From UHGV virus genome UHGV-0068444: a stretch of 39,624 nucleotides of DNA; one strand, 5' to 3'. This document shows positions 13,407 to 39,624 of this stretch, in pieces; position 1 is the stretch's first letter, and each line of letters begins with the position of its first letter. Made by a program: the position numbers and the translations under genes. This DNA comes from a virus. The notes beneath the pieces were generated by a model that saw only the letters and a list, made by a program, of their open reading frames with translations, searched no databases and was not told the origin of the DNA.

Positions 13407-13427
13407 GTGTATGGAGCGCAAAGAAGC

Positions 13428-14117
13428 ATGAATCAACAAGACCTGAATTTTGTAAGAATAGAATTGCGCCGCGCGCTACCTGACCTCTCTGGGGGAACAA
13501 AAGGGCAGCTTGAGGCTTTCAGTGAACACCCACCAGCAGACAAAAATGCCACCCCGCGCCGTGGAATTCATCTCGTCGAACTCGAAGGAGAGAAGGGGCC
13601 TCGCTTTGTTAACTCGCTTTCCGCGCCATTGTATGTATTGGAAACACGCAGCCGCTGCAGGCCAATGCCGCCGATAAAAGATGCGGAATTTGAGTCCGCG
13701 CCGTGGCGTAGGGCAGTGTCCGCGCTTAGTGGATACCAGCAGGCCTGGTTGCGGTACTGCTACGGTTTTGACCTTAGCTATAAGCACCAGGTGATGATGT
13801 GTGAATACGTCTGGAAAACTTATCAGAAATGTCTGGGTGATAATTCCCTTCAGGAGCGCGTAGTAAAGAAACTGATTGGCCTGGTATGGCTGGCAGGGCA
13901 GGAAATTGCCGCAACCAGAAATAATGAAACCTATAAAGACTATGCTGGTGCAGCGTTGGCCCGCATGGTTAGCGTTGATCGTTCGACATGGTTGCGTGTC
14001 TATTCAGGGCACTGGGCTGGGTTAAAGGCCGCTTTTACCCAGCTTGATGAATCTGCGTTGGCAATGGCTCTTGAATACTATGAGGAAGAAGAAGCCCTCA
14101 AAGTGGCAGAAATGTAA
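13428..14117 (+). CDS. Late-gene antitermination protein, Q-like
   Basis: Start MNQQDLNF (alternative GTG at 13407); position between nin-like genes and a tR'-type terminator; family assignment by context and recollection. Confidence 0.55.
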   Translation: MNQQDLNFVRIELRRALPDLSGGTKGQLEAFSEHPPADKNATPRRGIHLVELEGEKGPRFVNSLSAPLYVLETRSRCRPMPPIKDAEFESAPWRRAVSALSGYQQAWLRYCYGFDLSYKHQVMMCEYVWKTYQKCLGDNSLQERVVKKLIGLVWLAGQEIAATRNNETYKDYAGAALARMVSVDRSTWLRVYSGHWAGLKAAFTQLDESALAMALEYYEEEEALKVAEM

Positions 14118-14280: not shown

Positions 14281-15132
14281 ATGAAAATAGATAATCCCGA
14301 AAATCCACTTGAACGAAACGATTTTTCGATGGATGACTTCCATCACTACTTAAGGGAGTTTGATAAAGCTGTATGTGAAGCGAATGCTGTAAGTCAGGGG
14401 GTTGGTGTGCGAATGGCTGAGGCTTTTAAAGGGTGGTCTACATACATTTTTTCACGAATCTGCATTCATGCTTCAATAATGATTTCCAACGTACCAAAAT
14501 CAAGATGGGCTAAGCGGGATTATGACTTTTGGGATTTTTCGGCGATTGCACCTCATGTAAGAGCGATTCTGGAAGCTGAGTTATTGTTTATGTATTTATC
14601 TGAGAATCCAGATTCAACTGAGGAGTGGTCAGCAAAGTTGAATGTCATGCACATGAATGATTGTGTAAAGAGAATTGAGTTATTTACATCTAGTGATAAT
14701 ACGAAAGCATTGGATTTTTATCATGAACAAAAAGATATAATAACTGAGAGACTTAATAACAACCCTGTTTTTTTATCCCTTGAACAAGGAACCAGAAAAC
14801 GTTGCTTGACTGGAAAAGCGCTTATGATTCCAAATCGAGATGAGTTATTGGTTAAACTGGGAAAAGATCCAAAGTCATTTAAAATAATGTTCGATTTTTT
14901 ATCTCATTATACGCATATACTACCTATGTCATATTATAAAATGGAGCCAAACGGAAGAGGAACTGGTTGTTTTAACAACTATGACTTTGGCTATATGATT
15001 ATGGGGATGATTATTTGTACTGAATCCTTGACTAAGTGTACAGATAGATTAGTAGAACTTTTTCCTGATGTTAGACGGTTGCGAAAAGGAACTAAATCAA
15101 AATTCACGTTAGGTCCTAAACCTACAAAATAA
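14281..15132 (+). CDS. AT-rich hypothetical protein (283 aa), cargo gene; function unknown
   Basis: ATG after AGGTGAAG RBS; visibly lower GC than flanking phage genes; no hydrophobic segments; no motif recognised. Confidence 0.6.
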   Translation: MKIDNPENPLERNDFSMDDFHHYLREFDKAVCEANAVSQGVGVRMAEAFKGWSTYIFSRICIHASIMISNVPKSRWAKRDYDFWDFSAIAPHVRAILEAELLFMYLSENPDSTEEWSAKLNVMHMNDCVKRIELFTSSDNTKALDFYHEQKDIITERLNNNPVFLSLEQGTRKRCLTGKALMIPNRDELLVKLGKDPKSFKIMFDFLSHYTHILPMSYYKMEPNGRGTGCFNNYDFGYMIMGMIICTESLTKCTDRLVELFPDVRRLRKGTKSKFTLGPKPTK

Positions 15133-15350: not shown

Positions 15351-16013
15351 TTATGAAGAGAGCAGCATGACTTTTTCTTTTGCGGGCGAAGGTGACTGCT
15401 CTTTCAAAGGGAAAATTATAAATGCTATAAATGCAGTAAATAATACTATGAAAGCTAGCACTGTAACTTTCCTTGAAGATGATAGGGCTTTGTTATATTC
15501 CTTGGCTATTTTGTTCGTTATATGGATCTTAGTGCTATTTATTTCATCTTTTAGTATGGATAATTTATTTATAAATTCCTGTGTTTCTTCTCGAGAGTAA
15601 AGTTCTGAAGCATCTCTTGGGGTTTCATGTGGATGCCGAGTATAACCAAGTATTTGTGGTATTAAATTACCATGCGATTGAACTACAGATTCATATTTCT
15701 TATAGCAAGCATTATCAAAAAATCTCATTCTTATGCTAAGTTCTCTGAGTTTGTCAACGTCTAGAGAAACTTGTTCGTTGGCAATAATTAAATCTCCGCG
15801 GTTTAATGTATTCTTGTGTTGAAAAATTAGTAAAAGCCATTCTGTATTATTGTAAAGCTTTTCAAGATTGGCATGTATATCAAGTCCGAGTTTTTCATAT
15901 GCGGATAATTTGACCTCTTTTTCCTTTGCAGAAAGAGAAGATGAATAAGCCAGTAATCCGCTTATTATGGCAACAATAAATGTTCCTATAATGGTTAAGG
16001 TATTCGAGTCCAT
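15351..16013 (-). CDS. AT-rich hypothetical membrane protein (one N-terminal and one C-terminal TM helix), cargo gene
   Basis: Start MDSNTLTIIGTFIVAIISGLL (ORF extends to 16070); C-terminal VLAFIVLFTAFIAFIIF hydrophobic helix; convergent with the 14281 gene. Confidence 0.55.
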   Translation of the reverse strand: MDSNTLTIIGTFIVAIISGLLAYSSSLSAKEKEVKLSAYEKLGLDIHANLEKLYNNTEWLLLIFQHKNTLNRGDLIIANEQVSLDVDKLRELSIRMRFFDNACYKKYESVVQSHGNLIPQILGYTRHPHETPRDASELYSREETQEFINKLSILKDEINSTKIHITNKIAKEYNKALSSSRKVTVLAFIVLFTAFIAFIIFPLKEQSPSPAKEKVMLLSS

Positions 16014-16120
16014 TGTATTCTTCAAAAGTTGGTCAAAAATATATTGTAATATTTTAATGTATAAAATCAATCATTTCCCCTCATTCTGAGAGGACTCCCA
16101 GCAACAAAGAGGGGGGCTAA

Positions 16121-17666: not shown

Positions 17667-17808
17667 GGTTATTGACACCGGCTGCGATTGGGTAAAACCC
17701 ATCTACGGCACTGCTCATGATTGGGAAGTGCTGGACAGGCAGACCAAGAAAGACATTCTTATGCATAACAAAGTGTGGATGTCAAACTGTGGCTCTATAA
17801 CTTATTGA
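17587..17808 (+). CDS. Outer-membrane lipoprotein spanin (Rz1-like), overlapping Rz out of frame
   Basis: MYNRLLTICLMTLLIASC has a lipobox (LIASC); starts inside the Rz-like ORF in another frame. Confidence 0.6.
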   Translation: MYNRLLTICLMTLLIASCAKTGHVRIEVIDTGCDWVKPIYGTAHDWEVLDRQTKKDILMHNKVWMSNCGSITY

Positions 17809-18459
17809 TTTTGTTTTTTTGTTGTCTACCATATCAGGCAATGTGAAGGCATATAGAAGAAATACTTCGGTGAAACCAATCATTTCTTGAGCATCTTCTT
17901 TTGAAAATTCTTCATCAGAATGAACTGCTCCATTGGAATCGATTCGAACTATATGTGCCCATTCCCTCATTTGATCTGTAATCAGTCCCTTAGCATGCAA
18001 CATAGAAATCCGTTTAACCAATTTTTCATCTTTTGAGTCATTTCCCAGTAACTCCCGTGTAGCAATGTCCAAGACTTTACGGCAAAGCATAACGGATGTG
18101 TCGAAACGACAGCGCCCTAAGTTGTCTTTTGCTTCTATGAAAGCCATAGCAGCACGTGGCGGAGTGTGTTCGGGGGCGTTAAGGAGGGTGGGTTTCGGGA
18201 TGATATCAATCAACTGGTACTCAGTATTTCCAGGAATGATTACGTTTACATCATTATTTTGCCTAGATTTTGCACGAGGTAAATAACCACCGGGATTATT
18301 CATTTTTACAATAGCAATACCTGATTGAAAACAGCTTCGACAACAAAATGCAATATTAACTAAAGGCCCGGCGTTGATACGCAGTTCTGCCCATCCTTCA
18401 AGGACAGCATTTTCCCTCAGACAATGTGGGCAAGTGATATCGAAAGTGAGAATTCGCAT
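17782..18459 (-). CDS. Hypothetical protein with N-terminal zinc-ribbon (CPHC...CCRSC) and C-terminal helical domain; reverse-strand cargo gene
   Basis: Start MRILTFDITCPHCL after GGAG RBS (ORF extends to 18504); moderately AT-rich; C-terminal region loosely reminiscent of DUF4145-type domains (unverified). Confidence 0.55.
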   Translation of the reverse strand: MRILTFDITCPHCLRENAVLEGWAELRINAGPLVNIAFCCRSCFQSGIAIVKMNNPGGYLPRAKSRQNNDVNVIIPGNTEYQLIDIIPKPTLLNAPEHTPPRAAMAFIEAKDNLGRCRFDTSVMLCRKVLDIATRELLGNDSKDEKLVKRISMLHAKGLITDQMREWAHIVRIDSNGAVHSDEEFSKEDAQEMIGFTEVFLLYAFTLPDMVDNKKTKSISYRATV

Positions 18460-19140
18460 GACTCTACTCCATACATTAAAAGAAATTGAAAATGAATTAC
18501 ACAATGCACAACGACCTGAGTCTACACTCCTTCAACGATATGAAGTATCGAATGAGATTAAAAAAAAGGAGTTTGTAGTCGCTTTGATCGGTAAACTGAT
18601 AGAATTGGACCGCCGTCTCTATGTCACATCATTGAAGCCTTAGTTTCAATTTTACCGATTTATCGCTTAAGGGGTAGGACTTCAACACTACTAAGTGAGC
18701 ATTGCAGCAGGCATTCAGGGGAATGCTGTGACAGTAGTTAGCTAGGGTAAACCGTTTGCGCCTGGGGATTTTACTTTGCGACGGAAAATTAAAAAACTAT
18801 ATGATTTCTTATCCCACTAGGATGTCTGCGGACTACTACTGACTGTTTAGGCTATTACGAGGGGCTCAAACTCAACGTCTGGCATCAACGCAGAACTGAA
18901 AAAGTCGCCATGAATGTGGTTACGGTATTTGGTGGGATATAAACGTACCTTCATTTCTAAGCTTGATAATCACCTTTGTCCGAATTGCCTACGCGATAGT
19001 CATGTAGTTTTAGTCATAACCGTTTACCCTATTGATGTCAAGATAAATTGGATAACACTGATGAATCGAACCTCTAAATCCTTTGATGGGCCACTCATAG
19101 CTGACTGGTTCAAAAAAGTGTTATCAATGGTATGATAAGT

Positions 19141-19854: not shown

Positions 19855-19930
19855 ATAATTTAATTTTACATTGCTATTTATGTTTTGCTTTTAAGATTTT
19901 TAACTTTCTAGATGTAGAGTTATTGTTAAA

Positions 19931-19958
19931 GCACTGGTATTTGCCAGTGCTTTTTTAT
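19931..19958 (+). terminator. Intrinsic terminator closing the 19205-19854 cassette
   Basis: gcactgg-tatttg-ccagtgc hairpin followed by TTTTTT. Confidence 0.7.
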
Positions 19959-20360
19959 TAAAATCCGCGGATTAATGACGGCAATCATGAATACTCCTCC
20001 AAAGACTGATCCAACGATACGGGTGTATAAGTCACACTTGTTTAATCTGTGATTGATGGCACTATAATTTATGTTGCACAACATAAACTGCCGATGGAGG
20101 GAATTGAGTGCTGAGCATGTCAGACATAAGTGTGTTGTCGAAGGTCTCCTCAGGCATGGTTTCTGCATAACGTCGACACTTGAAAGCCTCCATAATGACA
20201 ATAAAGTATAAGTATTATCATTATTAATTGTCACTTGCCGTTGCGACATGCTTGGGCGGCGACCGCCTAAGTTCTCTTTATAAATGAGAAGTTCCCGCTA
20301 GCGACCGTTTCTGATTCTTTTTTTCTACTAAGTTTGTATCAAATAAACAGGATAATGCCG

Positions 20361-20723
20361 ATGCCAGCACGAGCAAAGCGTCCATGCCGGCACAAGGGCT
20401 GTGCGGCAGTTACCAACGATGCCAGTGGCTATTGTGATCAACACCGACAGCGGCATGCTGGTGATGGCTGGCGTAACTATCAGGCAGGAAAGAGCAGGCA
20501 GGAACGTGGATATGGGCGGACCTGGGAAATTAAACGGGTGCGTATCCTTCAGCGTGATAAGTACCTGTGTCAGAACCATCGCCGGCAGAAGATTGCAAAA
20601 AAGGCGACCAGCGTTGACCACATCATTCCAAAAGCTCATGGCGGTACTGATGACGATTTCAATCTTGAGTCGTTGTGCTGGGACTGCCACAGAGCGAAGA
20701 CGGCAAGAGAGCGTATCCGATGA
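20361..20723 (+). CDS. HNH endonuclease (terminase-associated type)
   Basis: Start MPARAKRPCRHKGC (ORF extends to 20334); Cys pairs CRHKGC...CDQH and C-terminal HIIPKAHGGTDDDFNLESLCWDCH motif; sits just upstream of terminase small subunit. Confidence 0.8.
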   Translation: MPARAKRPCRHKGCAAVTNDASGYCDQHRQRHAGDGWRNYQAGKSRQERGYGRTWEIKRVRILQRDKYLCQNHRRQKIAKKATSVDHIIPKAHGGTDDDFNLESLCWDCHRAKTARERIR

Positions 20724-21058
20724 GTTAGACCCATTGCACATATTTTGGTTCACGGCTCTATACAATAGCTAACTGCCCAAAATAATGGGGTGGTTCATCG
20801 CGCCGCGCCAACCTGCACTGCAGCTATTGTGGGCAGTCAGGGCATAACTCTAGTGCCTGTCCACATAATGAGAGCTGCGGTCGTCGGCGCAGCCTGAATG
20901 ATGACTTCCATCTTGATTGATGCCCACACAGGCCAGGGGAAGGGGGGATCAAATCCCTGACCCCTTTCGCCTTCCAGGACTGCCGCCTGAAGGACATTTT
21001 TATACGCAAGAAATAAGGATCTTTTTTCCGGTAGGTTTTAACTATTAATAGAGGTGTT

Positions 21059-29816: not shown

Positions 29817-30055
29817 GGCAATCTCCCTGGCTGTTGCTGGCTTACCAGCTGGCTGACCGCCTGGGAGAACCCGATCCACTGAAAATTCTGTCTCTGCCAG
29901 CTTCTGTTCTGATGGGGTGGCTGGCGTTTCTTAATCTTCCGGAAATTAATGGTATGGCACCTGGCGACCCGCCCGACAGCGGACTGAATGTACCTGCCAT
30001 TTCACCGGATGATACTGCCGCGGCCTGCGCTGCTTTTATGAGGGTGATGAAATGA
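29469..30055 (+). CDS. Tail assembly chaperone frameshift fusion product (G-T-like), made by -1 slip at 29807-29813
   Basis: Downstream ORF lacks an ATG start (listed with TTG) and is continuous in the -1 frame with the G-like ORF (KKLRQSPWLLLAYQLADRL...); conserved arrangement in long-tailed phages. Confidence 0.55.
29807..29813 (+). other. Programmed -1 ribosomal frameshift site (slippery heptamer A AAA AAC) linking G-like and T-like frames
   Basis: X_XXY_YYZ heptamer 3 nt before the G stop; the -1 frame is open from the slip site through the 29834-30055 ORF. Confidence 0.6.
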
Positions 30056-33024
30056 GTGGTAATGCCGGAACGCTGGCGGTCAGTCTGCATGTGAACAGCG
30101 CCTCTTTCAAAGCCGACCTTATGGATGCTTATCAGACCGGCAGCCGTGAGGCCCGGCGATTTGCTGAGTCCACTCGCAGGGAAATGAAAGAGACCGGGGA
30201 TGCCATCGGCAGTGTGGGTACCAGTGCCGGAGGGCTGGGACGCACTTTCGAAGGCCTTTCCTCGCGCCTGAAAACAGGAAGCGGCGGCTTTGATCAACTG
30301 CGTAGTGCTCTCAATGGTTTTGCTGCCACGGGGAATGTGTCCGCCAGTACGCTGGCTAATGCCCTGGTACCGGCGATATCCCGGACGCTGACGGGGGCTG
30401 AACAACTGAAAGGTGTGCTCGCTCAACAGCGGGACGCGTTCAGCAAAACCGCTCAGGCGGCATATGATGCCGCCCGGGCGCAAATCCAGTCGGCGCAGGC
30501 GGCAAAGCAAAAAGCACTGGATGTGGCACAGAGCGCGGCAAAAGACTATGAAGCAGCGAAGGCTGTCGAAGAAAATGCCGTGGCGCTGGCGCGTCATTAC
30601 GATCAGCAGCAGAAAGTCAATAAAGAGTACGGTCTTGCGGTCAGTTACAGAGAGGAATACCGGAAGATAAACGCGCAGCTTAAAGAGTCAGACATGGCGG
30701 CCAGCGTCGCCAAACAACGGGTGGCTGCGGCGGGAAAGGCAGCGGCAGAAGCGGAGGCACTGGAAGCACTCGGAAAGTCGAAGCTCTCGGATGCCATGCG
30801 TCTTATCAGCGCCAGGAACTATGAGATTTCTCTGTCAGCGCGTGCCGCCGCTGCGGGTACCGCGTTGCTGAACGGTGCACTGGCGATGGTAGGCGGGCCG
30901 GTCGGTCTGGGGATTATTGCGCTGGTTTCTGGCGTGACGGCACTGTGGTCTGCCTACAGCAAAGCTGAAGAAAAAACGAAAGCCCTGAATGCGGCATTAC
31001 TGCAAGGCAATAGTGGCGCGTCACTCAGCCTGACCCGGATCCGGGCGCTGAATAAAAGCCTGGGTGACACGGATGGCTCCATGAAGGCAGTGACGGCTGC
31101 GGTTAAGGCCGGGTTCAGCGGCGAGATGCTGGATCGCGTGTCCTCAGTCGGTAGCCAGCTGGAATCACTGGGGGGGAATGCGGATGAGCTGGTCCGACAG
31201 CTGTCATCCATCAGTGGCGATCCGGTCAAAGCGATGCAGGATGCCACGCAGCAGGGGTACGAATTTAATGCTGCGCAGATAGAGCAGATTGCCACCCTGG
31301 CCCGCCTGGGTAAAACCGCCGAGGCGGTGGCGCTGGTGCAGAAAATCATGCTTGATGACGTTGCGGACAAAATGAAGGAGCAACAGCGTCAGACTGAGGA
31401 GAGCATTGGCTGGTGGGAGAAGCTGAAGAAAGCTGTTTCTGAAGGGCTTGAGGGCTACGCTTCAGCGCAGATTGAGACCAGTCGCGCGATGGCGGCCGCG
31501 GTGGGGGTGGATATTGATGAGCCCGCCCGAAAGCTCAAAGAGAAGCGGGACGAAGAGAAAAAACAGGAGGAAGACCGGGCTCAGGCCGCCCGTCAGCGCC
31601 AGGATGAGCAGAGCAAAGAAATCACCGCCCAGATAAATCTGGCCGCCTGGATCAAGGCCGGGACGGATAAAACCCGTCTTGCAGCAGAAGCCACCGCCGA
31701 TCTCAGTACCCGCTATAAGGCCGGAAAAATCACCGCTGATGAGTACGCTTCTGCCCTGAGAGGGATAGACAAACTCTACGGTGATAAAAAAACCGGGGTG
31801 TCCGCCCATCAGGACAGCGAGGGTGTTCGCCGTCTGGCGCAACTGAAGCAACAGGAAGTGGTGCTGAAAGCGCAGGGGCGTGAAACGGAGCGGATGGGTG
31901 AAAGTCAGAAAAAATTACTGGCTTTTGAACAGGAAATCGCGTCTTACGCCGGGAAAAAACTGACAAAGGCCCAGGAAAGCGTACTGGCTATGCAGGATCA
32001 ACTGCGTGCCCAGCTTGAAACTAACGCAGCCCTGGAGAAGCAAAACGCACAACGTAATCTGGCTGTGACGCTTGAAAAACAACTCCGGGATGTCAGGGAG
32101 GAAACGGCACGCCGTCAGCAGGAGCAGAATAACGCTGCTGCTCAGGTGACGATGAGCGACCGGGAATATGAGCAGATGGTCACCCTGCAACAGATCCGTG
32201 AGGATTTTGCGCAGAAACAGAAAGCGCTCGATGAGGAGGTAAAAGACCATTCATCAGTGCTTTACCAGGCACAGACACAGGCGCTTGCCGAAGAAATGCA
32301 GAGGCAGACTGAAATCGTCAAAAAAGGCGCCGAAGACAAAAAAGCGGCTGAGGAGGATTTTGCGGGAGCCGCCGCCGCAGGCATGAAGAACTGGATGGAC
32401 AAGGCCGGTAACTATGCACAGCAGATAAAGGACGCAGTGTCGAACGCCATGGACGGGCTGGCGGATAACATTGTCGCCACCCTTAACGGCAATAAAAGCT
32501 CATGGCGTGACTGGGGGACGATGATACTCCAGACCATTCAGAAAATTCTGGTGAATGCCGCGCTGGTTAACGGCCTGAAGGCACTGGGCGGATCACTGGG
32601 TGGTGCCGGAGGGATCCTGGGAGGGATTGGCAGTGCAATTTCCGGTGTGGTGGGTAATGCCCGGGGGGGCGTCTATGACTCTCCGGGACTCAGTGCTTAC
32701 AGCTCTACTGTCGTCGACAGGCCCACGCTGTTTCCGTTTGCCAAAGGGGCGGGACTGATGGGGGAAGCGGGGCCGGAAGCGATTATGCCGCTGACCAGAG
32801 ACAGTAAAGGTCGTCTGGCCGTCACCGCGACGGGAATGGAAGGGACGGGAGGTGGCGTGGTGGTTAATCAGCAGTTCAGTGTGCACATACAGAATGACGG
32901 CAGTAACGGTGAAATAGGCCCCGGCGCGCTGAAGATGGTGTATGAGATTGCCGAACAGGCAGCAATGAAAACACTGACTGTGCAGGGGCGTGATGGTGGC
33001 AGGCTGAGCGGAGCATACAGATGA
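30052..33024 (+). CDS. Tail tape measure protein
   Basis: 990 aa, long Ala/Gln/Glu-rich coiled-coil regions, Gly-rich C-terminal segment; between the G/T genes and M. Confidence 0.85.
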   Translation: MSGNAGTLAVSLHVNSASFKADLMDAYQTGSREARRFAESTRREMKETGDAIGSVGTSAGGLGRTFEGLSSRLKTGSGGFDQLRSALNGFAATGNVSASTLANALVPAISRTLTGAEQLKGVLAQQRDAFSKTAQAAYDAARAQIQSAQAAKQKALDVAQSAAKDYEAAKAVEENAVALARHYDQQQKVNKEYGLAVSYREEYRKINAQLKESDMAASVAKQRVAAAGKAAAEAEALEALGKSKLSDAMRLISARNYEISLSARAAAAGTALLNGALAMVGGPVGLGIIALVSGVTALWSAYSKAEEKTKALNAALLQGNSGASLSLTRIRALNKSLGDTDGSMKAVTAAVKAGFSGEMLDRVSSVGSQLESLGGNADELVRQLSSISGDPVKAMQDATQQGYEFNAAQIEQIATLARLGKTAEAVALVQKIMLDDVADKMKEQQRQTEESIGWWEKLKKAVSEGLEGYASAQIETSRAMAAAVGVDIDEPARKLKEKRDEEKKQEEDRAQAARQRQDEQSKEITAQINLAAWIKAGTDKTRLAAEATADLSTRYKAGKITADEYASALRGIDKLYGDKKTGVSAHQDSEGVRRLAQLKQQEVVLKAQGRETERMGESQKKLLAFEQEIASYAGKKLTKAQESVLAMQDQLRAQLETNAALEKQNAQRNLAVTLEKQLRDVREETARRQQEQNNAAAQVTMSDREYEQMVTLQQIREDFAQKQKALDEEVKDHSSVLYQAQTQALAEEMQRQTEIVKKGAEDKKAAEEDFAGAAAAGMKNWMDKAGNYAQQIKDAVSNAMDGLADNIVATLNGNKSSWRDWGTMILQTIQKILVNAALVNGLKALGGSLGGAGGILGGIGSAISGVVGNARGGVYDSPGLSAYSSTVVDRPTLFPFAKGAGLMGEAGPEAIMPLTRDSKGRLAVTATGMEGTGGGVVVNQQFSVHIQNDGSNGEIGPGALKMVYEIAEQAAMKTLTVQGRDGGRLSGAYR

Positions 33025-33365
33025 CAGCGCAACTGAAAACATTTCACTGGTCGCCCAGAGAAGGGATGAAGATGGCATCAAAGCCGTCTGTTGTCACGGT
33101 GAGATTTGGTGACGGGTATTCGCAGCGCAGGGCGGCAGGGCTGAATGCGCAACTGAAAACGTGGTCGCCGGTATTCCGGGTTCAGGGGGAAAGGGAGATT
33201 CGCGCCCTGAACGATTTTCTGGATGCGCATGCAGGGTACCGGGCTTTTTTGTGGCGACCGCCGCTGGTGAACCGGCTGGTCAGAGTGATATGCCCTGAAT
33301 GGGATGTCAGCAATCTGGGGGGGTACACTGATTTCTCATGCAGGTTTGAGCAGGTCGTGATTTAA
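33021..33365 (+). CDS. Minor tail protein M (lambda gpM family)
   Basis: 114 aa; KTFHWSP...KPSVVTVRFGDGYSQRRAAGLNAQLKTWS...FLWRPP...FEQVV closely parallels lambda M. Confidence 0.9.
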   Translation: MTAQLKTFHWSPREGMKMASKPSVVTVRFGDGYSQRRAAGLNAQLKTWSPVFRVQGEREIRALNDFLDAHAGYRAFLWRPPLVNRLVRVICPEWDVSNLGGYTDFSCRFEQVVI

Positions 33366-33481
33366 AGATCGAAGAATCGATCTGATCGATCGATATATTT
33401 AATTGAACTTATTCAGCTGCTGGTGATGTTGTTCAGGCGCACGCCATGGTGCGCCTTATAAACAAACTGAAGGGAAACAAT

Positions 33482-34012
33482 ATGAATAAGTTAGCAGTGG
33501 CTGTTCTGGCTATGTCGGTTCTTGGTGGTGTCGGGGTTGCAAGTGCCGCTGATTATAAAAATACCGTGTCTCTGGGATATGCACATACACATTTGTCTGG
33601 TTTGATTTCAGGAAATGCAGCTGGTGCGAATCTGAAATATAACTGGGAACATCTGAATAGCGGGTTTGGCGTAGTGGGATCGCTTACCTATACCGAAGCT
33701 GATCTTAATAATTATTATTACGGCTATCGGGTTGGCGAAGTTAACTACACGTCTTTCCTTGTGGGGCCGTCATATCGTTTTAATGATTTTCTGAGTACCT
33801 ACATCATGCTCGGAGGGGCCAGTGGCGAAGTGAAAGATAATTTTGGGCACAGTGAATCTAAAACGAGTTTCGCCTATGGGATCGGTATCCAGGTTAACCC
33901 GGTAGAGCATTTTGCAATCAATGCCTCATATGAGCATGCTAAATTCAGTACTCAACTGGGTGATGATATTGATGCCGGAACCTGGGTTTTGGGTGTGGGT
34001 TACAGTTTCTGA
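33482..34012 (+). CDS. lom: Ail/Lom/PagC-family outer-membrane beta-barrel protein (cargo gene)
   Basis: Start MNKLAVAVLAMSVLGGVGVASA (signal peptide); ends GVGYSF (aromatic terminal residue typical of OMPs); alternating hydrophobic pattern; lower GC than neighbours. Confidence 0.8.
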   Translation: MNKLAVAVLAMSVLGGVGVASAADYKNTVSLGYAHTHLSGLISGNAAGANLKYNWEHLNSGFGVVGSLTYTEADLNNYYYGYRVGEVNYTSFLVGPSYRFNDFLSTYIMLGGASGEVKDNFGHSESKTSFAYGIGIQVNPVEHFAINASYEHAKFSTQLGDDIDAGTWVLGVGYSF

Positions 34013-34031
34013 CAGTATTCAATATTCCAAT

Positions 34032-34059
34032 AAAAAACCCTCCACTGTGAGGGTTTTTT
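34032..34059. terminator. Bidirectional intrinsic terminator between the lom-like and sodC genes
   Basis: aaaaaaccctc-cactgt-gagggtttttt: hairpin flanked by an A-run and a T-run, between convergent genes. Confidence 0.75.
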
Positions 34060-34126
34060 ATTGGGTAAATTTTCCGGCCTCCTCCTAAAGGTGCTGTCCG
34101 GTGTCTTTTTGTTGTATTACCTGCTG

Positions 34127-34654
34127 CTAGTTTATGACACCACAAGAAAAACGTGCCCCACCTCCGCCAAGAGTCACCGGAGTGTCAGAGTAGTTATCAC
34201 CACCTTTGTGGATCATAAGTGAATGCCCCTTAAGGTCGGACAGTGATTTAAGGCGCGGAGCCAGGATCGGGTATGTGGCATGACCATCAGTGTTGACAAC
34301 CAGCCCAGGCAGATCGCCCAGGTGACCTTTATCATTGTACGGTCCAAGGTGTTTACCTGTTTTCTCAGGATCCAGATGACCTCCCGCCATCAGGGCTGGC
34401 ACATTTTTTCCATCCTGGAGACCAGGCATGCAGGATGGATTAGTATGGACATGGAAGCCATGAACTCCCGGGGTAAGGTTGTTAAGGTCGGGGGTAAAAA
34501 GCAGGCCGTAAGGTGTCTCAGACACAGTTATTTCGCCGATGTTTTTACCTGCACCGTCAGAGAGTACGTCGTTCATTTTGACGGTCAGGCTGTTTTCTGC
34601 CACCGCTGAACAACTGATCAACATTCCAGCCATCACTAATATTCTTAATTCCAT
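34127..34654 (-). CDS. sodC: Periplasmic Cu/Zn superoxide dismutase (cargo gene)
   Basis: 175 aa with signal peptide; HGFHVH, GGHLDP, HLGDLP and GGGGAR...CGVI motifs characteristic of Cu,Zn-SOD. Confidence 0.9.
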   Translation of the reverse strand: MELRILVMAGMLISCSAVAENSLTVKMNDVLSDGAGKNIGEITVSETPYGLLFTPDLNNLTPGVHGFHVHTNPSCMPGLQDGKNVPALMAGGHLDPEKTGKHLGPYNDKGHLGDLPGLVVNTDGHATYPILAPRLKSLSDLKGHSLMIHKGGDNYSDTPVTLGGGGARFSCGVIN

Positions 34655-34744
34655 GATTAATGTTCCTTTTCTGTCAATGACATCAATATTCTTATGTGAT
34701 GGAGAGGTCTTTTTTCAACCAGTTTTACAGAAAGGATTTTGATT

Positions 34745-35440
34745 ATGCAGGACGTCCCACAGGACACGCTTAACGAAACCACCCGAACAGAGCAGTCCGC
34801 CCGAATCAGTCTCTGGGAATTTGATGCAACAGCCATCGGAGGGGAGCGTTATTTTTTCTGTAATGAGCCCAATGAAAAAGGCGAGCCGGTGACCTGGCAG
34901 GGGCGACAGTATGAGCCTTACCCGATACAGTCAGATGATTTTGAGATGAACGGCGTCGGCCCGGCGCCGCGTATCAGCCTTGTCGTGTCGAATATGTTTG
35001 GTCTGGTGACGGGCATGGCGGAAGATCTGCAGAGTCTGACCGGCGCGCGGGTGGTGCGTCGCCTGGTGTATGCAAAATTTCTCGATGCGGTGAATTTCGT
35101 GAACGGCAATCCGGATGCCGATCCGGAACAGGAGGCCGTGGCCTGGTATGTGGTGGAGCAGCTCTCGGAACTCACATCCGGCACTGCCACATTTATTCTC
35201 GCTAACCCTGTTGAAACTGACGGCTCGGTGTTTCCGGCACGTATTATGCTGGCGGATATCTGTACGTGGACATACCGGGGAGATGAGTGCGGGTATGACG
35301 GCCCGCCGGTAGCCGATGAATTTGATAAACCCACCTCAGATCCTGCAAAGGATCAATGCAGCAGATGTCCTGCAGGATGCAGGCTACGTAACAATATTGC
35401 CAGAGCAGGCTTTTTTATCTCCATTAACAAACTTTCCTGA
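34745..35440 (+). CDS. Minor tail protein L (lambda gpL family)
   Basis: Start MQDVPQDTLNETTRTEQSA; near-identical blocks to lambda L (GGERYFFCNE.NEKGEPVTWQGRQY, TWTYRGDECGY, FRNN...SINKLS). Confidence 0.95.
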   Translation: MQDVPQDTLNETTRTEQSARISLWEFDATAIGGERYFFCNEPNEKGEPVTWQGRQYEPYPIQSDDFEMNGVGPAPRISLVVSNMFGLVTGMAEDLQSLTGARVVRRLVYAKFLDAVNFVNGNPDADPEQEAVAWYVVEQLSELTSGTATFILANPVETDGSVFPARIMLADICTWTYRGDECGYDGPPVADEFDKPTSDPAKDQCSRCPAGCRLRNNIARAGFFISINKLS

Positions 35441-35450
35441 CGGTGACGTT

Positions 35451-36194
35451 ATGACAAAAACAGAACAGGATATTCTGGCGCATGCCGCACAGTGTGCACC
35501 GGCGGAATCGTGCGGGTATGTGGTCAGAACGGATGCGGGGGAGATGTACCTTCCCTGTGAAAATCTGTCTGCGGAACCCACCATGTATTTTCGCATGGTG
35601 CCGGAGGCGTATCTCCGTGCGCAGGCGGCAGGCGACATCGTGGCGCTGGTCCACAGTCACCCGGGCGGCCAGCCGTTTCTGAGTGAAGGGGACCGATGTT
35701 TGCAGTTACAGAGTGCACTTCCCTGGTGGCTGGCCTGCGACGGTAAAGTGCATAAGTTTCGCTGCGTGCCGCATCTCACAGGGCGGAGTTTTGAACATGG
35801 TGTGACGGACTGCTACACACTGCTGCGGGACGCCTGGCATCTGGCGGGGATCGAACTGCCTGATTTTGAACGCCAGGATGGCTGGTGGGATCGTGGGGAG
35901 AATATGTATCTGGATAATTTTCCTGACATTGGTTTTTACCCGGTAGAGCCTGAGGCCACGCAGACGGGGGATGTGTTGATTTGCTGCTTCGCATCGTCGG
36001 TGGCGAATCATGCCGCAGTGATCTGTGACAATGGGGAGCTGTTACACCATATTCCTGACCAGTTAAGCAAACGAGAGAGGTATACCGACAAATGGCAACG
36101 CCGCACACACTCAATCTGGCGTCACCGGGAATGGCGCGCATCTGCCTTTACGGGGATTTACAACGATTTGGTCGCCGCATTGATCTCAGCATAA
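35451..36194 (+). CDS. Tail tip assembly protein K (lambda gpK family)
   Basis: Start MTKTEQDILAHAAQCAPAESCGYVV; blocks VALVHSHPGG, HKFRCVPHLTGR.FEHGVTDCYTL, SKRERYTDKWQRRTHS match lambda K. Confidence 0.95.
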   Translation: MTKTEQDILAHAAQCAPAESCGYVVRTDAGEMYLPCENLSAEPTMYFRMVPEAYLRAQAAGDIVALVHSHPGGQPFLSEGDRCLQLQSALPWWLACDGKVHKFRCVPHLTGRSFEHGVTDCYTLLRDAWHLAGIELPDFERQDGWWDRGENMYLDNFPDIGFYPVEPEATQTGDVLICCFASSVANHAAVICDNGELLHHIPDQLSKRERYTDKWQRRTHSIWRHREWRASAFTGIYNDLVAALISA

Positions 36195-36802
36195 ATTCAG
36201 CGGCGGAAGGGCTGCATGCGCTGTTTATGCAGATACCGGAATTCCGTCAAAAACTGAACGAAGGCTGGTACCAGGTCCGGATTTCAGGACAGGATATTGC
36301 TTCTGATGAGGTGACCGCCCGGCTGCATGAGCCTTTACTGCCGGGGGCTGTCATTCATATCGTGCCCCGGGCCGAAGGTGCAAAATCCGGCTGGGGGGGG
36401 ATAATTCTGGGGGGAATTCTGGTCGCCGCTTCATTTATCCCCGGGCTGAATGCAATGGTGGCGACCGCCATGCTTTCATTTGGTATCTCAGCGACACTGG
36501 GGGGCGTGGCGCAGTTACTGACCCCGAAAGTGAATACGGCGGATGGCAATACAGCCGATAACGGTAAGCAGAGTACATACTTTTCCTCACTCGAAAACAT
36601 GATTGCCCAGGGGAATCCGATGCCGGTACCGTACGGTGAAATTATGGTGGGGTCCCGGCGGATTTCGCAGACCCTGAGTACACGGGATGAGAGCTCGCCG
36701 GAGAAGGTGATTAATTATGGCGGACCGTTCGCCCGGTACGAGGAGCTCATGTTACAGATTGCCGGGCTGCCCATTACGAAGCCTCGAGTTATTGTGCACT
36801 GA
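36092..36802 (+). CDS. Tail assembly protein I (lambda gpI family)
   Basis: MATPHTLNLASPGMARICLYGDLQRFGRRIDL parallels lambda I; alternative start at MARICLYG (36131); overlaps the 3' end of K. Confidence 0.85.
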   Translation: MATPHTLNLASPGMARICLYGDLQRFGRRIDLSINSAAEGLHALFMQIPEFRQKLNEGWYQVRISGQDIASDEVTARLHEPLLPGAVIHIVPRAEGAKSGWGGIILGGILVAASFIPGLNAMVATAMLSFGISATLGGVAQLLTPKVNTADGNTADNGKQSTYFSSLENMIAQGNPMPVPYGEIMVGSRRISQTLSTRDESSPEKVINYGGPFARYEELMLQIAGLPITKPRVIVH

Positions 36803-36871
36803 CGCAGTTTCACAGCGTACCGATACTGACCGCCCTGATGGCGGTTTTGTCATTTATGGAGTGAGTAAAAC

Positions 36872-39624
<2,753 letters not shown>

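Follow-up and report, generated by a model that had tools for sequence, protein, structure and literature searches.

A Gifsy-2-type Ail/Lom and SodC gene pair, very probably a two-gene moron, at the M–L junction of a lambdoid Escherichia coli prophage

Genes and features between tail genes M and L

The window analysed here, the whole 39,624-nucleotide stretch of virus genome UHGV-0068444, carries in its tail operon an insert of 1,379 bp (33366–34744) that separates tail genes M and L. The insert is low in GC (0.45 vs 0.54–0.57 for H, M, and L) and contains two convergent genes, encoding an Ail/Lom-family beta-barrel protein on the + strand and a Cu,Zn superoxide dismutase on the − strand. Its surroundings, as identified with Pfam, are those of a lambda-like tail operon, with the tape measure gene H upstream of M and the genes K, I, and J downstream of L. 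The relevant features are the following:

13407–14117, + strand: Q-type late antiterminator (Pfam Phage_antiter_Q, 125 bits)
33021–33365, + strand: tail gene M (minor tail protein), left boundary of the insert (Pfam Phage_min_tail, 113 bits; 46% amino acid identity to Gifsy-2 gpM)
33366–33481, + strand: M–ail intergenic region, GC 0.41 (inspection and alignment with Gifsy-2)
33482–34012, + strand: Ail/Lom-family 8-stranded outer-membrane beta-barrel protein, 176 aa (Pfam, PHROG 108, structure alignment)
34026–34065, both strands: bidirectional intrinsic terminator common to the two convergent genes (A6-CCCTC-loop-GAGGG-T6 core, 17-bp stem)
34127–34654, − strand: predicted periplasmic Cu,Zn superoxide dismutase, SodCI type, 175 aa (Pfam, NCBIfam, PHROG, structure alignment)
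34655–34744, − strand: sodC upstream region, which also holds the gpL ribosome-binding site, GC 0.31 (inspection and alignment)
34745–35440, + strand: tail gene L, right boundary of the insert (Pfam Phage_tail_L, 300 bits; 77% amino acid identity to Gifsy-2 gpL)
35451–39589, + strand: tail-tip genes K (35451–36194), I (36092–36802), and J (36872–39589) (Pfam)

J is broken in UHGV-0068444 by an IS1-family end, and the prophage may therefore be defective in this genome. A search for tRNA genes found none.

The open reading frame at 33446–34012 (+) matches the Pfam families OMP_b-brl (PF13505, 62.3 bits) and Ail_Lom (PF06316, 59.3 bits vs a cutoff of 23) as well as PHROG 108, Lom (E = 9e-42). Residues 26–176 of its product align with residues 4–157 of Yersinia pestis Ail (3QRA) over the full length (E = 3e-26), and OmpX is matched as well. 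Cleavage of a signal peptide is predicted after ASA22 (N-terminus MNKLAVAVLAMSVLGGVGVASA, followed by A), and the C-terminus (...TWVLGVGYSF) is intact, with the aromatic beta-signal strand present. Ail, Rck, PagC, and Lom belong to a family known for host-interaction roles. The window protein reaches the NCBIfam equivalog cut-off neither for OmpX (NF006917, 104.8 bits vs 176) nor for Rck (NF011777, 51.3 bits vs 258), so that no specific function can be assigned to it.

Translation most likely starts at ATG 33482 and not at ATG 33446, from which an earlier sequence-only reading had begun the gene. ATG 33446 sits in the loop of a GC hairpin (33436–33455) and is thrown out of frame by a 2-bp indel in the otherwise near-identical copy of an E. 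coli isolate (L084); ATG 33482 has a good Shine-Dalgarno sequence (GAAGGGA), and in alignments the Gifsy-2 and Fels-1 genes start at the same position. Gene calls in two assemblies from NCBI and one from a Logan run give 33482–34012 (176 aa), and those in two metagenome-derived contigs give a 188-aa form.

The product of the opposing gene matches Pfam Sod_Cu (PF00080, 105 bits vs a cutoff of 28.9), the NCBIfam SodC equivalog (NF007628, 210.8 bits vs 165), and PHROG 1975, whose category is "moron". Its copper ligands are H68, H70, H93, and H149, its zinc ligands H93, H102, H111, and D114, its disulfide C75–C171, and its catalytic arginine R168, roles established for SOD1 and SodC. All ligand positions, the catalytic arginine, and the disulfide are identical in the alignment to the SodCI structures 1EQW and 6D52. 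The hydrophobic N-terminus comprises 19 aa ending in AVA, and the alignment to both structures starts at E20, the position aligned with the first residue of the mature SodCI chain in 6D52; the protein is thus predicted to reach the periplasm by way of a cleavable signal peptide. By its alignments it is of the SodCI type and nearer to SodCI than to chromosomal SodC/SodCII: identity is 84% to Gifsy-2 SodCI, 58% to SodCIII, and 57% to O157 SodC-F, a search of the PDB gives 310 bits for SodCI vs 189 bits for the monomeric E. coli SodC (1ESO), and the protein falls into the same 90% cluster as proteins named SodC1. Comparison of the window gene with Gifsy-2 sodCI yields a dN/dS of 0.04 with dS saturated, which indicates that sodC is under purifying selection and has been conserved over a long period rather than being a recent relic.

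Between the two genes lies a strong hairpin with an A-run on one side and a T-run on the other (−23.5 kcal/mol on the + strand, z = −5.9, none of 200 shuffles as stable), which folds equally well on the − strand. Rfam gave no matches at the gathering score; a sub-threshold Trp_leader hit (24.8 bits vs 41) merely reflects this terminator. The M–ail spacer contains a GATC-rich inverted repeat (33376–33394; four GATC sites in 33367–33391) and a TTGAAC motif kept in Gifsy-2, while the GC hairpin around ATG 33446 is absent from Gifsy-2. On the other side, a putative sigma-70 promoter for sodC can be discerned by eye (−35 TTGAAA, 34718–34713; −10 TAAGAA, 34694–34689; Shine-Dalgarno, 34668–34663), but a sigma-70 consensus scan passed no promoter for either gene, this candidate included. 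Upstream of sodC, little is conserved with Gifsy-2 beyond this −35-like hexamer, for which Gifsy-2 has TTGCAA in the alignment. Control of sodCI by PhoPQ was reportedly described by Golubeva and Slauch in 2006. A PhoP-box-like direct repeat, sought with up to 3 mismatches, was not found in 34655–34744, and together with the poor conservation of the region this means that PhoPQ control cannot be transferred from SodCI to the sodC of the window. One PhoP-box-like match at 34607–34623 (2 mismatches) falls within the sodC reading frame and was set aside as due to chance or to conservation of the coding sequence.

Most of what the sequence-only reading had proposed for the locus thus stands: two convergent genes interrupting M–L, a signal-peptide beta-barrel protein of Ail/Lom type, a periplasmic Cu,Zn SodC, and a bidirectional terminator between them. 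Its further statement that both genes are established lysogenic-conversion functions has to be divided. For SodCI such a role is experimentally established (PMC2654757, PMC7067206), whereas for the Ail/Lom homologue it rests on homology, and in Gifsy-2-type phages the gene is often truncated.

Kinship with Gifsy-2 and distribution of the cassette

The closest known arrangement is that of the Salmonella prophage Gifsy-2. In the deposited genome annotation its order and orientation are H-M-STM1043 (Lom homolog)-sodCI (opposite strand)-L-K-I-J, with STM1043 and STM1044 (sodCI) convergent between gpM (STM1042) and gpL (STM1045), as in the window, and with a hairpin between the two cargo genes at the same place as the window terminator. 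Protein identity is 84% for SodC, 64–68% for the outer-membrane protein (STM1043), and 60–77% for L, K, I, and J. At the DNA level, Gifsy-2 31216–37082 matches window 33458–39364 with 69.5% identity over 5,990 bp (blastn), the sole DNA homology between the two phages, and this block is limited to ail-sodC-L-K-I-J. Outside it, identity drops to 30% for H and 46% for M, and the genes for head, lysis, and early functions are unrelated; an HK97-type capsid with its S49 protease and an early region resembling that of ST64B set the window phage apart from Gifsy-2. Since head and early genes are unrelated, the cargo has moved with the tail-tip module into a different phage, and since synonymous sites are saturated, the split between the window and Gifsy-2 is old. 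The two also differ in host, Salmonella for Gifsy-2 and, judging from NCBI protein names, E. coli for the window, and in the state of the barrel gene: STM1043 of LT2 stops before the last strand, which bears the C-terminal beta-signal, whereas the window protein is intact. A nonsense codon causes this loss of the last beta-strand in 15 of the 24 Gifsy-2-type copies examined, sodCI being retained, which argues against a strong host benefit of the barrel protein, at least in Salmonella.

The exact SodC occurs on 19 contigs, with the same gene order in all five places shown, among them E. coli assemblies and an infant-gut metagenome. Exact copies of the proteins, which NCBI names as E. coli proteins, turn up in ordinary E. 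coli drafts and in an assembly from a human gut metagenome (ERR525704, project PRJEB6456). The same order is found in all 23 sodC-carrying Gifsy-2-like loci of IMG/VR (Salmonella contigs). A megablast search with 32900–35500 against a phage collection and 5,426 complete E. coli genomes returned no match, and sensitive blastn against the complete E. coli genomes returned only partial matches of ~66% to O157-type prophage sodC; the module is accordingly absent from these 5,426 genomes, and its kinship to Gifsy-2 appears only at the protein or low-stringency DNA level. A SodC search of genome contigs found no copy of the UHGV-0068444 prophage. The next-best SodCs from genome contigs, from S. arizonae (71%) and from Brenneria and Pectobacterium (66–67%), came without tail-gene matches, and the neighbours checked for S. 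arizonae and Brenneria place the gene in non-phage chromosomal contexts.

Twelve related loci (L112, L117–124, L126, L137, L139) have M directly next to L, and in a further eight the two are split by unrelated cargo; these carry Porin_1, a Zn-ribbon membrane protein, DUF4236, a BamE-like protein, a P22 antirepressor, or HicA; the junction is therefore a general moron slot. Two loci considered as alternative cargo on the same backbone were rejected: L115 is a deletion derivative whose sodC has been cut to 64 aa and runs into head-gene sequence of the capsid/protease region, and in L135 a variant outer-membrane protein is fused to the C-terminus of L.

A moron, in the definition of Juhala and Hendrix as cited in PMC7067206, is an independent cargo transcription unit in a phage late operon. 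The insert separates genes that adjoin in related phages, has its own terminator (34026–34065), and deviates from its flanks in base composition, all of which supports reading it as cargo. The pair is thus very probably a two-gene moron, that is, a lysogenic-conversion cassette, of Gifsy-2 type at the M–L junction in the tail operon of a lambdoid E. coli prophage. Comparison of this junction across related phages, the check that had been proposed for the lysogenic cargo idea, upholds the cargo status and removes the supposed novelty of the position: the M–L placement, previously described as less familiar, is standard in the Gifsy-2 group, as seen in the annotation of Gifsy-2, the IMG/VR loci, and the Lom-like gene of Fels-1.

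Proposed working of the cassette and alternative readings

In a lysogen, we infer, the late operon would be silent, sodC would be read leftward from a promoter of its own within the 90-bp sodC–L spacer, and the ail/lom-type gene would be read rightward from the M–ail spacer, both transcripts ending at the common terminator. In Gifsy-2, sodCI is among the few genes that are highly expressed while lytic genes are silent, and it is for this gene alone that expression in lysogens has been shown (PMC7067206). Once exported to the periplasm by its signal peptide, SodC would dismutate external superoxide, such as that of the phagocyte oxidative burst, a role taken from the function demonstrated for the 84%-identical SodCI. 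The barrel protein would insert into the outer membrane as an 8-stranded barrel and, by analogy with its family, might alter surface properties such as adhesion or complement resistance. During lytic growth, Q-modified RNA polymerase would be expected, as in lambda, to pass the terminator and the antisense sodC, so that L-K-I-J could be expressed. The cassette is very probably inherited with tail-tip L-K-I-J as a single block, which has recombined onto a phage whose head and early genes are unrelated.

What the pair does for its carrier can be read in several ways. It may be a commensal fitness module, in which the SOD shields gut E. coli from the oxidative stress that inflamed mucosa or competing microbes cause, and adds no pathogenicity. 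The occurrence of the exact proteins in gut and ordinary E. coli material fits this idea, as do the lack of other recognisable virulence cargo in the window (for example, the Gifsy-2 type III effectors sseI and gtgE) and a sodC promoter unlike the Gifsy-2 one, with no PhoP-box-like site. However, the one phenotype demonstrated for SodCI, with which the protein shares 84% identity, is protection against the phagocyte NADPH oxidase (PMC2654757), and fitness and virulence are inseparable by sequence, both sharing one mechanism; we regard the idea as possible, though somewhat doubtful. A different division of labour is unlikely, namely that sodC is the only true host-benefit gene and that the Ail/Lom-type protein, made late in infection or in the lysogen, changes the cell surface in the interest of the phage, for example to exclude superinfecting phages or to keep progeny from re-adsorbing to debris. 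Its gene does share the strand of the late genes, no independent promoter passed the scan, and the OmpX and Rck thresholds are not reached; moreover, the frequent truncation in Gifsy-2 beside a retained sodCI shows the protein to be dispensable to Salmonella, and the separation of the Lom-like gene from sodCIII in Fels-1 indicates that the two genes are not functionally tied. Yet the gene is missing from many relatives with the same tail genes and is hence not needed for tail function, its family is known for acting on hosts, its low GC and own terminator are moron-like, and the TTGAAC-bearing spacer upstream has been kept between the window and Gifsy-2 despite an identity of only 46% in M, which points to a conserved regulatory region.

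That the pair is a decaying relic, functionless in its present host, is very improbable. The interrupted J of the window copy, the existence of the deletion derivatives L115 and L135, and the frequently truncated Gifsy-2 barrel gene would be compatible with decay, but both reading frames are intact, with metal ligands, disulfide, and C-terminal beta-signal all present, the dN/dS of sodC is low, and the same intact pair occurs on 19 contigs, among them isolates with an intact J of 1,166 aa.

As a Gifsy-2-type moron, then, the pair is real but ordinary, a diverged addition to a known kind of pair, and its importance beyond cataloguing is small. It documents that the classical sodCI/ail cassette of Gifsy-2 also exists outside that Salmonella phage, that it travels with the tail-tip module, and that it occurs, much diverged, in a rare E. 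coli prophage from human gut samples. A more far-reaching proposal is tentative, and we consider it doubtful: an old ail-sodC unit tied to L-K-I-J would have been carried from a Gifsy-2-like lineage onto an unrelated chassis in E. coli, where, with an outer-membrane protein that is intact, unlike that of most Salmonella copies, and with a sodC promoter that has been rewired and seems independent of PhoP, it would confer on rare lineages from the gut or from extraintestinal sites a SodCI-like resistance to phagocytes, usually regarded as a Salmonella-specific trait. If E. coli lysogens did gain such resistance, this would be of modest interest for the evolution of E. coli pathotypes.

Comparison with other known systems

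Y. pestis Ail (PDB 3QRA) and E. coli OmpX (1QJ8) share with the window protein a full-length 8-stranded barrel alignment and the C-terminal ...GYxF; the extracellular loop regions differ, and ligand specificity is therefore not transferable. The lambda genes lom and bor follow the same moron logic, being host-interaction genes in late regions that are expressed from the prophage. In the gene order of lambda, lom stands downstream of J. Lambda Lom belongs to the same Ail/Lom family (PHROG 108) but is only ~32% identical and has no SOD partner.

E. coli O157:H7 and Stx phages (prophages CP-933R/V) carry sodC-F1 and sodC-F2, prophage Cu,Zn SOD genes that lie antisense in a lambdoid tail operon like that of the window. 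SodC-F, however, is only 57% identical, its gene lies between I and J, Lom comes after J, as it does in lambda, and nothing separates M from L. Like other prophage SodCs, the products of sodC-F1 and sodC-F2 form dimers and exceed chromosomal SodC in activity and stability, and dimeric quaternary structure, protease resistance, and periplasmic tethering have been described for SodCI and SodC-F (PMC2569942).

Salmonella phage Fels-1 has a Lom-like outer-membrane protein, STM0920 (57% identical), in the same M–L slot, and its sodCIII (STM0924, 58% identical) is antisense within the tail operon, as is sodC in the window. There, however, sodCIII lies between I and J and not beside the barrel gene, so that the two do not form a pair. 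Set beside these systems, the window adds one more documented case of the M–L junction as a general cargo slot in lambdoid tail operons.

The ail–sodC insert and its products

The cargo pair proposed by the sequence-only reading is found in the ORF table and the raw sequence as two convergent ORFs flanked by gpM-like and gpL-like genes.

Features of the tail region
30052-33024, tape measure protein H
33021-33365, M (Phage_min_tail)
33446-34012, + strand, OMP ORF (Pfam OMP_b-brl and Ail_Lom)
34127-34654, − strand, SodC ORF (Pfam Sod_Cu)
34745-35440, L (Phage_tail_L), followed by K (JAB + NlpC/P60), I and J

M and L are separated by 1,379 bp, counted from stop to start codon, with a GC content of 0.45 (0.31-0.41 in the spacers); H, M, L, K, I and J have 0.54-0.57. 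The stop codons of the two cargo ORFs flank a perfect hairpin (34026-34065) bordered by A6 and T6. Its folding energy on the + strand is −23.5 kcal/mol (z = −5.9), and the − strand forms an identical stem; it is therefore a genuine bidirectional intrinsic terminator, as had been suggested. Together, the ORFs, their Pfam families, the tail neighbours, the terminator, and the GC deviation confirm the observed cargo pair.

The OMP start had been placed at 33446, but ATG 33482 is favoured: it follows a Shine-Dalgarno sequence (GAAGGGA) and coincides in the alignment with the Gifsy-2 and Fels-1 starts, and in an almost identical copy from an E. coli isolate a 2-bp indel shifts ATG 33446 out of frame. 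Two NCBI assemblies and one Logan run assembly have the 176-aa form annotated, two metagenome-derived contigs the 188-aa form. ATG 33446 lies in the loop of a perfect GC hairpin (33436-33455, GGCGCAC-GCCATG-GTGCGCC), which the E. coli copies have and Gifsy-2 and Fels-1 lack. Further upstream, just 3′ of the M stop codon, an inverted repeat (33367-33394, ATCGATC-TGATC-GATCGAT) carries four GATC (Dam) sites within 25 bp, the mean across the window being one per 239 bp; it is partially conserved in Gifsy-2 (two GATC sites) but not in Fels-1, and may act in weak termination behind M or in Dam-sensitive regulation.

The assignment of the OMP to the Ail/Lom type is borne out by Pfam, by membership in PHROG 108 (Lom), and by alignment of its whole mature length with Yersinia pestis Ail (3QRA) and OmpX; its signal peptide is typical (...VASA|A) and its C-terminal strand (...GVGYSF) intact. 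The protein scores under both the OmpX and the Rck NCBIfam equivalog cut-offs, so it is a generic family member to which no specific function can be transferred.

The second product was correctly recognized as a periplasmic Cu,Zn superoxide dismutase. With 210.8 bits it clears the NCBIfam threshold of 165 for the SodC equivalog, it belongs to PHROG 1975 (category moron), and it has as its best solved relatives Salmonella SodCI 6D52 and 1EQW (E ~1e-92), with alignments starting at E20, right after a 19-residue signal peptide ending AVA. All Cu ligands (H68, H70, H93, H149) and Zn ligands (H93, H102, H111, D114) are identical to those of SodCI, as are Arg168 and C75-C171, which we take, from established knowledge of Cu,Zn SODs, to be the catalytic arginine and the disulfide, the ligand roles being assigned likewise. 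Identity is 84% to Gifsy-2 SodCI, 58% to Fels-1 SodCIII, and 57% to O157/Stx-phage SodC-F. Between the window and Gifsy-2, synonymous sites of sodC are saturated (dS ~2.5) and dN/dS is 0.04 (L 0.12, K 0.18, M 0.39), so the pair is old, with sodC under strong purifying selection; it is no recent copy of the Salmonella cassette.

Among species-representative genomes, the next-closest SodCs (66-71% identity) are those of S. arizonae (L004) and of Brenneria and Pectobacterium (L005-L008), and a search for tail-gene matches around them found none nearby. Both loci checked have a non-phage chromosomal context: L004 sodC adjoins an autotransporter, and L005 reads srfB/virulence-factor-sodC-ogt-fnr. 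These SodCs are nearer to the phage enzyme than E. coli SodC (PDB 1ESO) is, a hint that the SodCI lineage does not derive from the host's own sodC.

Distribution and predicted expression

NCBI names E. coli for the exact proteins (HAW0071985.1, HAW0071986.1, WP_044690662.1), and cluster-mates of the OMP and gpM (90%-identity clusters) carry names from Salmonella serovars Denver and Ngili. Two NCBI assemblies and the human gut metagenome assembly ERR525704 are among the sources of the 19 contigs with the exact SodC; gene order is unchanged at 5/5 places among the matches listed. A search of 5,426 complete E. coli genomes found no copy of the module, which is thus rare in the species.

In the lysogen, with the late operon repressed, ail and sodC would be expressed independently, both transcripts ending at the common terminator. 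Such independent expression has been demonstrated by transcriptomics for Gifsy-2 sodCI, one of a small number of strongly expressed genes in its prophage (PMC7067206). A consensus promoter scan passed none for ail or sodC; a weakly supported sodC candidate has −35 TTGAAA (34718-34713) and −10 TAAGAA (34694-34689), and Gifsy-2 has TTGCAA aligned to the −35, the rest of the region not being conserved. PhoPQ control has reportedly been described for sodCI; the window's sodC promoter region contains no PhoP-box-like repeat, and such control cannot be assumed here. During lytic growth, polymerase modified by Q (antiterminator gene at 13407-14117) would, by analogy with lambda, read through the terminator, so that L-K-I-J would be made.

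SodC would act in the periplasm on exogenous superoxide. The protection that SodCI gives is specific to the phagocyte oxidase, and a sodCI mutant shows no phenotype in phox-/- mice (PMC2654757). Compared with the chromosomal enzyme, which is a monomer, prophage SodCs are dimeric, more stable and about 3x more active (PMC2569942).

The role of the OMP is the least certain part of the proposed mechanism. In its Gifsy-2 orthologue STM1043 (L140, NC_010393.1, 31730-31775), the Trp codon of ...AGTWVLGVGYSF, nine codons from the end, has become TAG, so that the last beta-strand is lost. This change was found in 15/24 Gifsy-2-type copies examined (among L091-L138 and L140), the others being intact (6/24, 174 aa) or 5′-deleted (3/24), and LT2 has an extra 15-bp tandem duplication at the site; sodCI is intact in all 24, and the window OMP gene, unlike STM1043, is intact. 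In many strains, then, the gene labelled 'bacteriophage virulence determinant; Lom homolog' (STM1043) may be a pseudogene. Such frequent truncation fits the lack of a mouse phenotype that Ho et al. 2002 reportedly saw for single knock-outs of Gifsy-2 virulence-gene homologues except sodCI and gtgE.

Other features of the window

The window contig is identical to metagenome contig L086. Its J (905 aa) diverges at ~39569/39570 from the 1,166-aa J of isolate copies that are otherwise 99.5% identical, and runs into 55 bp (39569-39624) that recur on plasmids and up to 26 times in an E. coli genome. The one listed record to name the feature at the match gives a transposase of the IS1 family; an IS probably interrupts J at this point, where the window ends. 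In the Q-lysis-terminase region, ORFs lie antisense or inserted at 15351-16070 (−), 17782-18504 (−), 19926-20249 (−), 20328-20765 (−), and 14281-15132 (+); these extra ORFs include a DUF4145/PHROG 1305 'DNA binding protein', a DUF5677 protein just after Q, and two with no family match, and may be additional morons. At the left end, beyond the integrase gene (664-1869, −), an AT-rich ORF (50-667, +) encodes 205 aa, rich in Lys, Ile and Phe, with an N-terminal membrane segment and no significant family match.

The M–L junction and the relation to Gifsy-2

A gpL-seeded survey of IMG/VR, scored with tblastn, covered 51 loci. The ail-sodC pair lies between M and L in 23 Gifsy-2-like loci (L ~77% identical) and two of the window's phage type, M and L are adjacent in 12, and eight have unrelated cargo there (Porin_1, a Zn-ribbon membrane protein, DUF4236, a BamE-like lipoprotein, a P22-type antirepressor, the HicA toxin), so the junction is a recurrent moron slot; the porin, found in other lambdoid phages, has 387 aa. 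Loci with other cargo are L110/L111 (3680-4843), L114 (4298-4936), L125 and L128-L132, with L119/L121/L122/L127 at the L-K junction, where L122 carries a Fic/DOC protein and L119/L121 a 2.3-kb insert. Two IMG/VR loci of the window's phage type are deletion derivatives. In L115 (4716-4910), only the first 36 residues of sodC remain, and they run directly into sequence from the head genes (capsid/protease region). L135 (4596-5258) has an in-frame fusion of a different Ail/Lom variant, which shares the signal peptide and is 37% identical across the alignment, to the C-terminal third of gpL.

In the annotated phage collection, Gifsy-2 is the best tblastn match for both proteins. Its whole genome shares one homologous block with the window, ail-sodC-L-K-I-J (33458-39364 against 31216-37082, 69.5% nucleotide identity over 5,990 bp), and nothing further matched; protein identity is 30% for H and 46% for M. 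The mosaic joint lies within the M-ail spacer, which still shares the GATC-rich inverted repeat and a TTGAAC motif with Gifsy-2. H, M, head, and early genes come from other lineages. The capsid of the window phage is of HK97 type, its protease is an S49 protease, and its early genes are ST64B-like or E. coli-phage-like.

In an Stx2a phage, unlike the window, M and L are adjacent, sodC lies between I and J, and Lom follows J. Fels-1 has a Lom-like gene in the M-L slot, as in the window, with sodCIII elsewhere, between I and J. The Gifsy-2 annotation (STM1041 gpH, STM1042 gpM, STM1043 Lom homolog, STM1044 sodC on the opposite strand, STM1045 gpL, then K, I, J) gives exactly the window's arrangement. 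The lysogenic-conversion pair is thus real and was interpreted correctly, but its placement, thought less familiar, is not novel: by annotation and in the 23 loci, ail-sodC is the standard M-L occupant of the Gifsy-2 group. What is new, at most, is that this classical moron pair has a strongly diverged member in E. coli, on a different phage chassis and in linkage with the tail-tip module.
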